Positions 134 through 11,555 are shown, counted from the first letter of the stretch. The stretch: 14,990 nucleotides of DNA from a virus (IMGVR_UViG_2695420540_000009), one strand, 5' to 3'. Numbers and translations: made by a program. The notes: generated by a model not told the origin, from the sequence alone.

Positions 134-174
134 NNNNNNNNNNNNNNNNNNNNNNNNNNNNNNNNNNNNNNNNN
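134..174. other. run of 41 N (unresolved sequence / contig join) inside an IS110-family transposase gene
   Basis: Literal N characters; transposase reading frame runs into it and unrelated Tfa-like sequence lies beyond it. Confidence 0.95.
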
Positions 175-764
175 TCTTCTATTGTACGACGGTGTTCGTC
201 AAAAGCTAATTGTCGCCAGGGACTTTCGAATGAGTATTTGCTGAGCCAGCGTCGGTGTGCAGGGCCCCAATCTGCTCGCCCGACATAATGGACCCCATGA
301 ACCAGAAGAAACGATTTCAGACGTTGCCTTGCATGCCGTAAATCATCGCGGGCAGATGCCCATGCCCGGGCCAAATCCCGGAATGCCTCATCTTCAATGC
401 CGGGTACGTAGACAGCAGAAAGATCTCCTGCACGCAGTGAACGCACAAGTCTGATGGCATCACGGCGATCGGTTTTAACCCGCTCCCCCGGTTTTTTCGG
501 GATAAGTGAGGGGGCGCAGACCATGCAGTCAAAACCGGATTTCACCAGCCGACGATAAAGTCCATAACCACAGGGCCCCGCTTCATAAACGATACTGACC
601 TGCGATGACTTTGACCTGAGACGTTTACAAAGATTCTGAATATCAGTAGGTGATGTGCCAATTTTACCCATCAGTTCAACAGGTTCTGAATTGATAGCAT
701 AAGCGACAGTAATCGATTCTTTGTGAACATCTAACCCGACGTACAATGTGTTATTGTTGTTCAT
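175..764 (-). CDS. IS110-family transposase, N-terminal ~197 codons (DEDD RuvC-like catalytic domain); C-terminal part missing in the N-run
   Basis: ORF 54..812 (-). ATG at 764..762 preceded by GGAGG with a 5-nt spacer. Protein begins MNNNNTLYVGLDVHKESITVAYA and contains GLDVHK, EAGPCGYG and RRDA motifs typical of IS110-family DEDD transposases. The translation beyond the N-run is out-of-frame Tfa-like sequence, so the gene is incomplete. Confidence 0.8.
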
Positions 765-890
765 GCTGGCCTCCGTGGTGGAAATACCGGGGTGTAGCAA
801 CAGCTCACCCATGCGGCTCTGACAACGATGTTAACCCGCGTTAAATATCCCACGTTGGCCAGCATCTGTCTCACGGAAAGTCATACTGCC
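175..890 (-). mobile_element. partial IS110-family insertion sequence (transposase 5' part plus ~125 bp upstream non-coding end); true ends not determinable
   Basis: IS110-family elements lack terminal inverted repeats and target-site duplications, so the ends cannot be read from the sequence. The extent given is from the N-run to the stop codon of the neighbouring Tfa-like ORF. Confidence 0.5.
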
Positions 891-1160
891 TTACATTGTG
901 TCTGGTTCTTCCGGCCACTCAATATCAGGTGCAGTTGATGTATCAACACGGTTCAGCAACACCCGATACTTCTTCCAGGCTTCCAGCAACGAGTTTTCTT
1001 CCTCCGTTGCGATCTCCAGATCTACAGCATCCTGAAGTGGCGCAATATGCTCACTGAATTCCTGGATGTAGAACTGTGTGGTGACGGTCTTCCAGCCATT
1101 CGGCTCCTGCTGTATCGAAGCATACCAGGCTATTTCAATATCGCTATGCTGCGGCAGCAT
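891..1160 (-). CDS. small Tfa-like protein (89 aa), resembling the C-terminal domain of phage tail fibre assembly proteins; possibly a remnant
   Basis: ORF track 891..1160 (-). C-terminal stretch [27 protein letters not shown] parallels [25 protein letters not shown] at the C-terminus of the 5592..6119 Tfa. ATG at 1160 is preceded by GGGG with a 4-nt spacer, and an in-frame TAA lies immediately upstream, so the frame cannot extend. Confidence 0.5.
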
Positions 1161-1216
1161 TTAACCCCTTGTAATTCATCGCCATAATTGATTTAATTCA
1201 CAAATAAAACTATAAC

Positions 1217-1885
1217 ATGGTGAAATCAATGAAAACAAACACAGATGATGGGGCTAAAATTTACACACCACTTACCCTAAAGCTTTATGACTGGTGGGTT
1301 TTGGGAGTATCAAATCGGCTTGCATGGGGATGTCCTACAAAGGAACACCTTCTTCCACACTTTCTGGAACATTTAGGTAACAACCATCTGGATATTGGTG
1401 TTGGAACTGGGTTTTACCTTACTCACGTACCTGAGAGTAGTCTGATATCTTTAATGGATTTGAACGAAGCTAGCCTGAACGCGGCATCTACAAGGGCTGG
1501 GGAATCAAAAATTAAACATAAAATTAGCCATGATGTTTTTGAACCTTATCCCGCGGCGTTACATGGTCAATTTGATTCCATTTCCATGTTTTACCTTCTT
1601 CACTGCCTGCCTGGAAATATATCTACAAAAAGCTGTGTAATACGCAATGCGGCGCAGGCCTTAACTGATGATGGAACTCTATACGGAGCCACAATTCTTG
1701 GCGATGGAGTTGTGCACAATAGCTTCGGTCAAAAACTGATGCGCATTTACAATCAGAAAGGCATCTTTTCAAACACAAAAGATTCCGAAGAAGGCTTAAC
1801 ACATATACTCTCAGAGCATTTCGAGAATGTTAAAACCAAGGTTCAAGGTACTGTAGTAATGTTTTCCGCTTCAGGGAAAAAATAG
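1217..1885 (+). CDS. putative class I (Rossmann-fold) SAM-dependent methyltransferase, 222 aa; AT-rich cargo gene of unknown substrate
   Basis: ORF track 1217..1885 (+). Contains a glycine-rich SAM-binding motif I-like sequence LDIGVGTGFYL and a downstream LTDDGTLYGATI segment consistent with small-molecule/protein methyltransferases. No DPPY/NPPY or PCQ DNA-methyltransferase motif seen. The ATG at 1217 has no clear RBS; the ATG at 1229 (MKTNT...) follows GGTGA and may be the real start. Visibly AT-rich compared with the tail genes. Confidence 0.6.
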   Translation: MVKSMKTNTDDGAKIYTPLTLKLYDWWVLGVSNRLAWGCPTKEHLLPHFLEHLGNNHLDIGVGTGFYLTHVPESSLISLMDLNEASLNAASTRAGESKIKHKISHDVFEPYPAALHGQFDSISMFYLLHCLPGNISTKSCVIRNAAQALTDDGTLYGATILGDGVVHNSFGQKLMRIYNQKGIFSNTKDSEEGLTHILSEHFENVKTKVQGTVVMFSASGKK

Positions 1886-2065
1886 CATCCAACCGCAGCA
1901 CGTTCTTGCTTAAGACGTGCTACGGTTTCCTTTACGATTTGGGGTTGCGACTTTACCTCTATTGATAATGCATTCCGGCAGAACGTTCAAATATGAACGT
2001 ACGATATTTAACTAACCGAAAAACAAAATATAGCACAGGCGAGACATTTACCATCTAAGAAAATA

Positions 2066-2082
2066 GTATCGTTTTTTTACAG
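2066..2082 (+). promoter_or_regulatory. MxiE box (GTATCGTTTTTTTACAG) with a TAAAAT -10-like hexamer 20 bp downstream (2103..2108); candidate MxiE/IpgC-dependent promoter of ipaH
   Basis: Seen in sequence: exact match to the published 17-bp MxiE box consensus GTATCGTTTTTTTANAG, about 119 bp upstream of the ipaH ATG. The spacing to the -10 hexamer fits a box overlapping the -35 position (established knowledge of Shigella MxiE-regulated promoters). Confidence 0.7.
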
Positions 2083-2200
2083 TTAAATCAACATCTCTTC
2101 CTTAAAATGAAAACAATAAATTTCAATCCTGAAACATTTTATTTTAGCTTATTATTTCCCAGTATCACATTTTATCAGAATATCCTTCTGCGAGGTTATT

Positions 2201-9756: not shown

Positions 9757-9765
9757 ATTCACCCC

Positions 9766-9795
9766 ACAAAAAAGCCCGCCTGAACCGGCGGGCTG
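9766..9795 (-). terminator. rho-independent terminator downstream of lom (minus-strand stem AGCCCGCC / GGCGGGCT, loop GGUUCA, then U6)
   Basis: Seen in sequence between the lom stop (9821..9823) and the stf start (9756). Confidence 0.65.
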
Positions 9796-9820
9796 TCATA
9801 ACACTGTGTTACCTGGCTAA

Positions 9821-10641
9821 TCAGAATTTATAACCGACACCCACGATGAAACCGTCAGTGCGCCAGTCGCCACTGCCGGAGCCTTCATAAGCAATATCAA
9901 TGGCCACGGATTCGGTCGGGTTAAACTGCACGCCAGCTCCCCACGCCAGAGACGTGTTGCTGTGGCGACCGTCATCACTTCCGGTCAGCACATCGTGCGT
10001 TTTCCCCTTATTGTCAGTTACGCGGATATAATCCCCGGAAAAAGTCGACACACGGCTGTAAGCCACACCCGCCATCGCATACGCGCTGAACCATTCATTC
10101 ACGCGCACAGACGGCCCCGCCATCACGCTGAACCAGCGATTACGCACGGAATCCTCATGCCAGCGGGTATCGCTGTAATGCGTTTTTTGCTCATCTTCAG
10201 CGTTGGCATAACTGAATGACGTAATCAGCCCCAGCGTGTCCGTAAACTCATAACGGTATTTCACGTTAATCCCGTTCAGATNNNNNNNNNNNNNNNNNNN
10301 NNNNNNNNNNNNNNNNNNNNNNNNNNNNNNNNNNNNNNNNNNNNNNNNNNNNNNNNNNNNNNNNNNNNNNNNNNNNNNNNNNNNNNNNNNNCAAAGCGGC
10401 GCAGTGCCTCCGGTCGGACATCATCCTCCGTCATGGCACCGAGAAAATCATTCAGCGNGTCCGTAAACTCATAACGGTATTTCACGTTAATCCCGTTCAG
10501 ATTATCGCTGCCGGGAGCGTTCGTACGGGCATGAAGATACCCCGCGCTCAGTGTGGACTGATGTTCAGACGCCCATGCAGGCGCACCGGATACGGCCAGA
10601 CAGATGGCTGCGGACAAAATGGCTGCACAAACTTTACGCAT
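9821..10641 (-). CDS. lom: Lom (Ail/Lom/PagC-family outer-membrane beta-barrel protein), interrupted by an unresolved block 10282..10458 (N-run plus a 66-bp stf-like fragment)
   Basis: 5' part at 10459..10641 (MRKVCAAILSAAICLAVSGAPAWASEHQ..., signal-peptide-like, ATG at 10641 preceded by GAGAGG) and 3' part at 9821..10281 (...DGFIVGVGYKF, ending in the aromatic residue typical of beta-barrel proteins). The two parts overlap by ~47 bp of duplicated sequence around the gap. Confidence 0.8.
10282..10391. other. run of 110 N inside lom
   Basis: Literal N characters. Confidence 0.95.
10392..10457 (-). other. orphan 66-bp fragment matching stf codons ~85-105 ([21 protein letters not shown]), misplaced inside lom between two N positions
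   Basis: Near-identical to 9443..9500, and it overlaps by 13 nt the sequence just below the 8572..8581 N-run. Most simply a small contig placed in a scaffold gap. Confidence 0.6.
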
Positions 10642-10662
10642 AATTACCTCTCGCTTTTCTGC

Positions 10663-10689
10663 AATAAAAAAGGCGCCATTTCTGGCGCC
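10663..10689 (-). terminator. rho-independent terminator between the J-fragment stop and the lom start (stem GGCGCC/GGCGCC, loop AGAAAU, then U6)
   Basis: Seen in sequence; identical copy at 11891..11917. Confidence 0.6.
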
Positions 10690-10708
10690 CGTATATGGGT
10701 TATAAAAT

Positions 10709-11554
10709 TCAGCTGATACTGATGCCTGCGGTGGCTTTCTTCATCACCACAACCAGCAAATCGCTGATACTTGCTGTGGGATACCAGTCATTTACCAGCC
10801 ATGATGACACCGAAAACTCCAGCGTCATGTGGCCGCGACCAGCTGGCATATCAATAACACCACTGTAAATCAGCGTATTATCCAGCGCGGTACGGTTATA
10901 AATTTCAGCACCGTTTTTCCGTACTATCAGGCGGCATGACGAATAAATATCGTTATTCTCCCGCTCATGTTTAGCGCCGCTGAATGCCACCGCCGGAATA
11001 ACAATTTGCCTGTCAAAAGGCTGATCGTCATAAATCCTGACGGTAATGGTCCCTGATGGCCACCGCTCCGGTGCCCGGGAGTCCCGCGGAAAAGCCTTAC
11101 CCACTGTTTTGACTATATCGCCTTCAATCTGGTTGGCTGACAGTTTCCCCTTAATCTGACAGTTCTCATTAATTGTGACATTGTTGAGCGTCCCGGCGTT
11201 CGCATTCACACTGCCACTGATATCTGCATTTTTAGCGGTCAGTTTTCCGTCCGGTGTCAGGGAAAATGCCGGAGGATTACCGCCGCTGGTAATGGTGGGA
11301 GCCGTCAGGCGTTTCAGGAACACGTCGTTCATGAATATCTGATCGCCCTGACCAACAAACATCGGCTTTGTGTTGCCATTCGCAGGATTAATCATCGCAA
11401 TCCTGTCTGCCGCCAGCAGCACCTGACTCTGCATTCCTGCTGGCGTATTCTCAATACCGGCACCGATACCCGCAATATAAAGGCGTCCGTCCTTCATCTG
11501 CTGCAGTTTCACGGCCCACATGCTGTTCAGGTTATTATTTGTATCAACCTGAAC
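10709..11554 (-). pseudogene. J: variant second copy of the J 3' end (C-terminal ~282 codons, receptor-binding region), joined at N 11555 to a lom 5' fragment
   Basis: ORF 10709..11869 (-) is a lom(1-104)-X-J(C-term) chimera. 10709..~11000 is by eye identical to 11937..~12228; a diverged patch follows (about 11005..11245 vs 12233..12473), then near-identity again. Confidence 0.6.
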
Positions 11555-11555
11555 N

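Follow-up and report, generated by a model that had tools for sequence, protein, structure and literature searches.

The stretch of DNA analysed here (the window, 14,990 nucleotides of one strand of the viral record IMGVR_UViG_2695420540_000009) carries a partial ISSso6 element, an ipaH gene and a set of lambdoid prophage tail genes, including a truncated pin, tfa, stf, lom and J. Six blocks of N, amounting to 164 positions and accompanied by no other ambiguity code, split the window into seven pieces, S1 to S7 (Table 1). A preliminary description, made from the sequence alone, had placed the N runs at exactly these positions and had proposed that the window is a multi-contig scaffold. This proposal is supported by comparison with other genomes, since the pieces map to three places and no reference shows collinear flanks at any of the six joins.

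Table 1. Pieces, genes, N joins and internal repeats of the window, with matches in reference DNA
Feature	Position	Strand	Content	Reference match or spacing
S1	1-133		Tfa-remnant fragment	100% to S. sonnei 53G L016 8424-8556
Join A/B	134-174		41 N	Left flank L016 8556; right flank L006 7975 inside ISSso6; 816 bp of IS missing, plus other locus
S2	175-3850		Locus B	One 3,676-bp alignment, 99.9%, finished S. sonnei L005/L006/L010 7975-11650
Partial ISSso6	175-889		In S2
Tfa remnant	891-1160	-	In S2; Pfam
SAM methyltransferase	1217-1885	+	In S2; Pfam
CssrB sRNA	1894-2073	-	In S2; Rfam
ipaH	2201-3844	+	In S2; Pfam	Exact IpaH protein present in S. sonnei 53G
Join B/A	3851		1 N; not an ambiguous base call	53G flanks ~296 kb apart
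S3	3852-8571			99.94% to 53G L016 9587-14306, 3 mismatches
Truncated pin	3856-4062	-	In S3; 68-aa fragment of Resolvase N-terminal domain
Tail-fibre C-terminal gene	4266-4877	+	In S3; Pfam
tfa	5030-5563	+	In S3; Pfam
tfa	5592-6155	-	In S3; Pfam
stf codons 103-918	6121-8571	-	In S3
Join A/C	8572-8581		10 N; two stf alleles	Overlap in reference coordinates (-868 bp, approximate)
S4	8582-10281		stf N-terminal 394 codons (8582-9762, -) and lom 3' part	99.5% gapless to L036 8813-7114
Join C/A	10282-10391		110 N; left lom (C), right stf (A)	930 bp back in reference (-930 bp)
S5	10392-10457		66-bp stf fragment continuing S3	100% to 53G L016 14294-14359
Join A stf/A lom	10458		1 N	Hides 821 bp: 53G coordinates run to 14359 for S5 and from 15181 for S6
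S6	10459-11554		lom 5' part and J 3' part	99.2% to 53G L016 15181-16276
Join A J/C lom	11555		1 N	Flanks out of order by 1,226 bp (-1,226 bp)
Lom(1-104)-X-J(281 aa) ORF	10709-11869	-	386 aa, spans N at 11555
S7	11556-14990	-	lom 5' part, then J running off window end	99.5% gapless to L036 7288-3854
Self-repeat S1/S2	1-132 vs 917-1048
Self-repeat S3/S4	7727-8571 vs 8582-9450		stf, 88% identity
Self-repeat S4/S7	10107-10281 vs 11556-11730		175-bp overlap
Self-repeat S5/S4	10392-10457 vs 9438-9503		stf, 95.5% identity
Self-repeat S6/S7	10453-11554 vs 11681-12782

Home loci of the seven pieces

Each of the seven pieces has a full-length, gapless match to contiguous DNA at 99.2-100% identity, and in window order their homes read A, B, A, C, A, A, C. 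Home A is the trpA-adjacent prophage of Shigella sonnei 53G, where S1, S3, S5 and S6 map in order, S5 overlapping the end of S3 by 13 bp in 53G coordinates. Home B, represented by S2, is an ipaH locus that lies about 296 kb from A in finished S. sonnei, while home C is a third lambdoid stf-lom-J allele formed by S4 and S7. The genome is S. sonnei-like and contains several prophage remnants with near-identical modules in common (Tfa remnant with methyltransferase, stf, lom and J), and ISSso6 and the 3' ends of ipaH are likewise multi-copy. These comparisons indicate that the pieces probably stem from at least three look-alike prophage regions. The breaks fall, as had been anticipated, in multi-copy sequence: ISSso6, the ipaH 3' repeat, the Tfa/methyltransferase module (common to two prophages), stf, lom and J.

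Downstream of the ipaH of locus B, finished S. sonnei has a DUF4376 remnant, an IS and an integrase, and never pin. The 3' end of S2 lies inside a multi-copy repeat common to at least five ipaH paralogues (ipaH9.8, ipaH3, ipaHa, ipaHd and ipaHe). The reading that this end marks the repeat boundary was rejected, because the repeat extends beyond it, by 30 bp or more in the plasmid copy and by 250 bp or more in the chromosomal ones. On the A side, the exact 203-aa tail-fibre protein has a methyltransferase upstream, not ipaH, in all eight places that carry it.

Allele C differs from prophage A of 53G, to which S4 is only 87-94% identical, and its closest relative is the IMG/VR contig L036. S4 is covered over its whole length by one piece in complete E. 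coli genomes, and S7 carries Pfam J domains. Neither S4 nor S7 contains a complete gene. The two pieces overlap by 175 bp, with differences at 2 of the 175 positions, and merging them restores an intact 199-aa Lom. The merged sequence (4,960 bp) matches L036 without gaps at 99.56%, aligns in a single gapless block over 100% of its length in the best E. coli genomes, and is at least 80% covered by one place in 3,716 of 5,426 complete E. coli genomes. S4 and S7 thus appear, from these alignments, to belong together. The exact merged Lom was absent from a collection of 15 billion proteins, the exact J fragment was not on record in the protein look-up, and allele C was not located in the retrieved S. 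sonnei DNA (some 20 kb surrounding two loci of each genome).

With the exception of the inverted tfa pair and the leucine-rich repeat of ipaH, all self-repeats longer than 50 bp end exactly at an N border. Neighbouring duplications either reach the ends of their pieces or place one piece within another: S1 is a variant of window 917-1048 (91.7% identity, with 11 differences at positions 35-119), and S6 is contained in the paralogous stretch 11687-12782. The preliminary description had joins between unrelated or repeated sequence; the discontinuities are real, but what it took for repetition consists of paralogous copies (88-99%) and not of the same copy used again.

Piece interiors and ends are also slightly mosaic between copies. 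Two of the three mismatches of S3 to 53G fall within its last 17 bp, and both are C-type. All 40 variable sites in the core of S6 (11006-11462) are A-type, the flanks of S6 are identical to S7, and the first ~48 bp of S7 hold A-type bases at 11588 and 11603. In S2, three A-type bases at 1216-1236 stand among 17 B-type sites.

Joins compared with finished genomes

Comparison with other genomes appears to refute the joins as written. At 134-174, a Tfa (Caudo_TAP) remnant ends on the left, and the right flank begins within the ISSso6/IS110 transposase, of which about 196 of 375 codons remain. Of the 1,531-bp IS, approximately 816 bp are absent, more than 41 N can hold. The N at 3851 has ipaH with 6 further bp on its left, and on its right a sequence that begins 4 bp away from the truncated pin's stop codon; after TCACAT, all five ipaH paralogues checked run on as CGCATAAACC... 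instead. Among the 5,426 E. coli genomes, every ipaH match stops at 3850 and every IS match starts at 175, and an exact scan of genome contigs found neither the ipaH/pin nor the ISSso6/Tfa junction. The earlier observations of an IS110 transposase beside unrelated Tfa-like sequence, and of pin abutting ipaH, are accurate as descriptions of flanks that come from the A and B loci.

The remaining joins lie among tail genes. The two stf copies on either side of 8572-8581 fall on the same reference interval in L001, L003, L004 and L016, so that stf does restart at an earlier point, about 868 bp back, as had been noted; the restart, however, is not in the same gene copy but in a paralogous allele that is 88% identical. 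The misplaced 66-bp stf fragment described inside lom was found at 10392-10457 between two lom fragments. The reported abutment of lom codon 104 and J at 11555 was also recovered, with Lom residues 1-104, an X and the last 281 residues of J in frame. Both this ORF and the 1,213-aa Stf are chimeras, and the exact Lom-X-J chimera was not on record in the protein look-up.

Reference spacings differ from the N counts at every join, and the reading of the Ns as in-place masks was consequently rejected. Real junctions mediated by microhomology were rejected for 3851 and 11555, whose flanks have none. None of the 5,426 complete E. coli genomes covers 80% of the window as written, and its order of pieces was likewise absent from all 16 places that look-ups of the exact IpaH and tail-fibre proteins gave.

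Probable scaffold origin of the window and competing explanations

Taken together, these comparisons indicate that the window is very probably a draft-assembly scaffold or pseudomolecule and not a contiguous chromosome. In the proposed sequence of events, the assembler would have collapsed near-identical stretches, so that only divergent parts of the copies came out as short contigs of their own. All pieces would next have been arranged along one "collapsed" tail-gene coordinate during scaffolding or contig ordering. Sharing one coordinate would interleave contigs from at least three loci in the order observed, and an overlap or unknown distance between pieces would be written as 1, 10, 41 or 110 N. 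Sorting by start or end coordinates on one template reproduces the piece order only approximately, and sorting by midpoint nearly does so. No consistent rule was found that ties the N-run lengths to projected gaps, or the flank lengths of the short pieces to an assembler.

An alternative is that the Ns are masks or ambiguous calls in physically real sequence, with ipaH beside pin, a partial tandem duplication of stf and a duplicated lom-J. Three of the six N blocks comprise one base each, as an ambiguous call would, and two ORFs stay open and in frame across Ns, although the chance expectation for two such chimeric ORFs is about 1 in 9. S. sonnei is IS-rich and rearranging, several different IS contexts were seen around exact IpaH matches, and the join at 10458 shows a 5-bp CAGCG match, which could be chance. 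What makes this alternative scarcely credible is that no join has reference-collinear flanks at a spacing equal to its N length, that the flanks at 3851 and 11555 offer no homology able to mediate recombination, and that the order as written is missing from every E. coli genome and every IpaH or tail-fibre place compared. Moreover, the duplicated copies are not recent tandem duplications, since the identity between them is 88-96% and each corresponds to a known allele of its own. It is just as hard to credit that even one join is physically real, for instance in an S. sonnei lineage where ipaH has come to adjoin the truncated pin and the invertible tail-fibre segment and the N is a miscalled base.

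The artefact could instead mix genomes, with S4 and S7 contributed by another strain or by E. coli contamination of the sequenced sample rather than by a third prophage that shares the chromosome of A and B. This is improbable. It would fit with the lack of C in the S. sonnei loci retrieved, with a best relative for C that is an IMG/VR contig at 99.5%, compared with 99.9-100% for A and B, and with a merged Lom that is not on record. The absence of C weighs little, however, considering how small a part of each S. sonnei genome the two retrieved loci cover. Remnants with stf-lom-J are common (a median of three places per E. coli genome for merged S4 and S7), and switches between A-type and C-type bases at piece ends are expected if both copies were present at comparable depth in one genome. 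Allele C would lie in one genome with A and B; it might nevertheless derive from more than one copy, a contaminant or a second strain, because it is unlocated in S. sonnei, its merged Lom is off record and its two pieces mismatch within their overlap.

Gene conversion between resident prophages is a further, unlikely explanation for the base switches in S2 (1216-1236), at the end of S3, in the flanks of S6 and at the start of S7, which would then be real tracts and not consensus blending. At every variable site the window has one of the two known alleles and never a third, and the switched sites form contiguous runs; module exchange is known among lambdoid prophages. On the other hand, all but one of the four switches coincide with contig ends, the places where collapsed repeats are met in assembly, and L005, L007 and L010 keep unconverted B-type bases at 1216, 1227 and 1236 (these three alignments are sound; the L012 read-out is unreliable, with a shifted offset). 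Gene conversion concerns the mosaicism alone, and the N joins stay artefacts under it.

Relation to known artefacts and consequences for gene content

Shigella genomes are notoriously rich in IS elements, and short-read bacterial drafts break at these elements and at prophage repeats. The window resembles such drafts in breaking at ISSso6, at the conserved 3' half of ipaH and in modules shared between prophages. It differs from them in that its pieces are chained by Ns, some of them single and resembling base ambiguities, which leads to plausible-looking chimeric ORFs.

False duplications in scaffolds have been described as "duplicated overlapping contigs" and "duplicated contained contigs" (Kelley & Salzberg 2010, PMC2864568); false gene gains are a related subject (PMC9516828). 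As in the former study, variant copies here are assembled apart and placed adjacent with gaps, and their alignments run to contig ends. S3/S4 and S4/S7 correspond to the overlapping kind, while S1 in S2, S5 in S4 and S6 in S7 correspond to the contained kind. Those reports concern diploid haplotypes; in the present case, paralogous prophage remnants, IS elements and ipaH repeats of a haploid bacterium are involved, and the copies, each of them real, have their proper places at different loci.

A genuine Pin-type invertible lambdoid tail end is annotated in E. coli ETEC-2264 and IPCEC48 and in the trpA-adjacent prophage of S. sonnei 53G. Without the interlopers, S1, S3, S5 and S6 reproduce this architecture: Tfa remnant, methyltransferase, truncated pin, tail-fibre C-terminal gene, tfa, tfa', stf, lom and J. 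Unlike finished lambdoid prophages, the window separates the Tfa remnant from pin by an inserted ipaH locus and adds a second stf/lom/J allele, and no finished genome shows these insertions.

Since pieces from separate loci are joined by Ns, any gene neighbourhood or "fusion" that crosses an N would be an artefact. This applies to the Tfa fragment beside the truncated IS110 transposase, the ipaH-pin adjacency, the internal stf duplication, the second lom copy with its embedded stf fragment and the Lom-J "fusion". Two blocks, each contained within one piece, are real: ISSso6, Tfa remnant, methyltransferase, CssrB and ipaH (175-3850), and the pin remnant, tail-fibre gene, tfa, tfa' and stf (3852-8571). 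The order stf-lom-J is real once 8582-10281 is merged with 11556-14990. In public drafts, a single N can mask a join between loci hundreds of kilobases apart, and base calls in shared modules can be blends of paralogues. The artefact itself is ordinary and its value is one of quality control only, yet it is decisive for everything else that is read from this window.

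Seven pieces and their source loci

The 164 Ns of the window fall into six blocks, at exactly the positions reported in the preliminary description, and divide it into seven pieces (S1 to S7). Comparison of the window with itself places the N borders at the exact end points of all of its long direct repeats. The pieces map to three sources: the prophage adjoining trpA in Shigella sonnei 53G (locus A, retrieved as L016), the ipaH locus (locus B, L006 in 53G) and a further stf-lom-J allele (C). Because S1, S3, S5 and S6 are collinear on the single prophage A, S2 belongs to B, and S4 and S7 belong to C, the window passes through the loci in the order A, B, A, C, A, A, C.

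Genes (identities verified by Pfam), Rfam matches, N blocks, pieces with their matches on prophage A (L016) and direct repeats of the window
Feature	Position	Strand	Details
IS110 transposase, N-terminal part	175-812	-	
Caudo_TAP remnant (Tfa remnant)	891-1160	-	89-aa ORF
IS009 (Rfam)	934-1137	-	129 bits, gathering score 117; overlaps Tfa-remnant ORF
SAM methyltransferase	1217-1885	+	
CssrB, Chromosome-encoded Shigella sRNA B (Rfam)	1894-2073	-	full-length match, 230 bits, gathering score 76
IpaH with LRR and NEL domains	2201-3844	+	
pin	3856-4062	-	68-aa Resolvase N-terminal fragment
gp37_C tail-fibre tip	4266-4877	+	
Tfa gene	5030-5563	+	
Tfa gene	5592-6155	-	
Stf N-terminal domain	8582-9762	-	
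J	11937-14990	-	runs past window end
N blocks	134-174, 3851, 8572-8581, 10282-10391, 10458, 11555		
S1	1-133		L016 8424-8556, 100% identity
S2	175-3850		
S3	3852-8571		L016 9587-14306, 99.94% identity
S4	8582-10281		
S5	10392-10457		L016 14294-14359, 100% identity; 13-bp overlap with S3
S6	10459-11554		L016 15181-16276, 99.2% identity
S7	11556-14990		
Direct repeat	7727-8571, 8582-9450		88% identity
Direct repeat	10453-11554, 11681-12782		96.3% identity
Direct repeat	10107-10281, 11556-11730		98.9% identity
Direct repeat	1-132, 917-1048		91.7% identity
Direct repeat	10392-10457, 9438-9503		95.5% identity

The exact 203-aa tail-fibre protein of S3 is found in the 53G prophage adjoining trpA, approximately 296 kb from the ipaH locus, and the methyltransferase is its upstream neighbour in each of the 8 places returned. 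Gene J of this prophage (L016 15431-18609) is called as two ORFs of 513 and 547 aa, and is therefore probably a pseudogene. In several other genomes with the same tail-fibre protein (L013-L015, L017, L019), an IS3-family element interrupts stf some 300 bp into its length, and neither lom nor J is present there. The truncated pin has its own stop codon, and 53G and E. coli relatives show the same state. Within 4266-6155 the two tfa genes still face each other, with inverted arms at 5030-5188 and 5961-6119 that are 71% complementary, and the invertible tail-fibre segment is probably frozen.

The 547-aa IpaH of S2 is the exact protein encoded in finished Shigella genomes, among them that of S. 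sonnei 53G (HE616528.1; PMC5447701). With several loci encoding this protein, S2 forms one 3,676-bp alignment at 99.9% identity, within which the ISSso6 insertion too is shared and identically placed. S. sonnei-type loci sharing this insertion continue after ipaH with a DUF4376 remnant, IS elements and an integrase, and pin follows ipaH in none of the eight places returned for the exact IpaH. The partial ISSso6 (IS110 family; 175-889), labelled 'RNA-guided transposase' by RefSeq in one genome, lies beside the Tfa remnant at the same site in the S. sonnei-type loci L005, L006, L007, L010 and L012; L008, L011 and the EIEC locus L002 lack it at the corresponding site, so that the insertion marks a lineage of the ipaH locus. 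The Tfa remnant itself recurs as S1 and as a 73-bp repeat in reference prophages. CssrB occupies the spacer that separates ipaH from the methyltransferase gene, and since all three lie inside S2, their adjacency is real.

Joins without a collinear counterpart

No reference is collinear with the window across any of the six joins, and the lengths of the N blocks do not reflect the true distances. ISSso6 measures about 1,531 bp in 53G and S2 begins 816 bp into it, beyond the capacity of the 41 Ns at 134-174. The single N at 3851 stands between loci about 296 kb apart, the one at 10458 conceals 821 bp of prophage A, and the other joins are backward steps of 868, 930 and 1,226 bp. Blunt comparison of each flank with its true continuation gave no homology at 3851 or 11555, and a 5-bp CAGCG match at 10458. 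Beyond TCACAT, the sequence runs on as CGCATAAACC in five ipaH paralogues (ipaHe, ipaH3, ipaHd, ipaHa and plasmid ipaH9.8), so S2 ends inside a multi-copy repeat. On this evidence, the Ns were rejected as in-place masks or ambiguous calls. Comparison with other genomes thus supports the earlier proposals of a scaffold built from several contigs, broken in multi-copy sequence.

Probable repeat collapse and a third allele

At piece ends, variants of the other copy appear. The last 17 bp of S3 carry two C-type bases, and S7 is A-type at 11588 and 11603 within its first ~48 bp and C-type from there on. The core of S6 (11006-11462) is A-type at all 40 variable sites; its flanks (547 and 92 bp) match S7 exactly and depart from 53G at 8 sites. 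S1 spans only the variant-dense part of the Tfa remnant, past which copies A and B are 99.3% identical. From an assembler that collapses near-identical paralogues, only divergent stretches would emerge as separate small contigs; the variant switches and the extent of S1 match this expected output. That the mosaic tracts instead record real gene conversion is unlikely. Inside S2, too, three adjacent A-type sites (1216, 1227, 1236) occur among 17 B-type diagnostic sites. These sites, at the methyltransferase gene start, may reflect the consensus of a collapsed repeat or else gene conversion over a short tract. Their bases are C, C and C, as in the trpA-prophage copy; the 53G ipaH locus, L005, L007 and L010 have T, T and A.

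With only 86-94% identity to prophage A, S4 and S7 constitute a third allele. The two pieces share an overlap of 175 bp, and an intact 199-aa Lom is restored when they are merged. The merged 4,960 bp form a single gapless alignment with 100% query coverage in the best complete E. coli genomes, and align, again gaplessly, to one IMG/VR contig that has no Ns (L036), at 99.56% identity. At a coverage of at least 80%, the merged sequence has a place in 3,716 of 5,426 complete E. coli genomes; the window as written reaches 80% in none of them. Allele C was not found in the S. sonnei loci retrieved (~20 kb around two loci per genome), and the exact merged Lom is absent from a collection of 15 billion proteins. 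The allele is probably that of a third prophage residing in the same genome as A and B; it may instead combine more than one copy or, less likely, stem from a contaminant. The rebuilt Lom has an unusual Ile at residue 132 (window region 10040-10066), where nearly all of ~35 homologues in the retrieved loci have Leu; either the change is specific to the strain or S4 carries a base error.

Chimeric ORFs and recurrence in public drafts

The N joins of the window are an ordinary assembly artefact, and two gene-like ORFs on the minus strand are chimeras. The first (6121-9762, 1,213 aa) consists of C-type Stf residues 1-394, XXX and A-type Stf residues 103-918, and the second (10709-11869, 386 aa) of Lom residues 1-104, X and the final 281 residues of J. 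Three further features are also artefacts, namely the placement of ipaH beside pin, the 'second lom' and the placement of Tfa beside IS110, in keeping with the earlier caution that adjacency-dependent readings be treated as provisional.

Duplicated overlapping and duplicated contained contigs have been described as a source of false segmental duplications in scaffolds, in which two variant copies are set side by side because mates link to the same surroundings (PMC2864568). The window corresponds to both types, but whereas the variants there were haplotypes, here they are prophage remnants, paralogous to one another, in a haploid genome. A second public sequence with the same kind of artefact is L068 (IMGVR_UViG_2695420412_000022), in which stf-lom-J begins again with a different allele after a single N at 3821, and a 100-mer specific to C has two matches, 1,533 bp apart. 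Such single-N joins, linking the tails of paralogous prophages, thus recur in public drafts. The mis-joining is of low scientific interest in itself, and is a needed caveat for any adjacency-dependent reading of the window.
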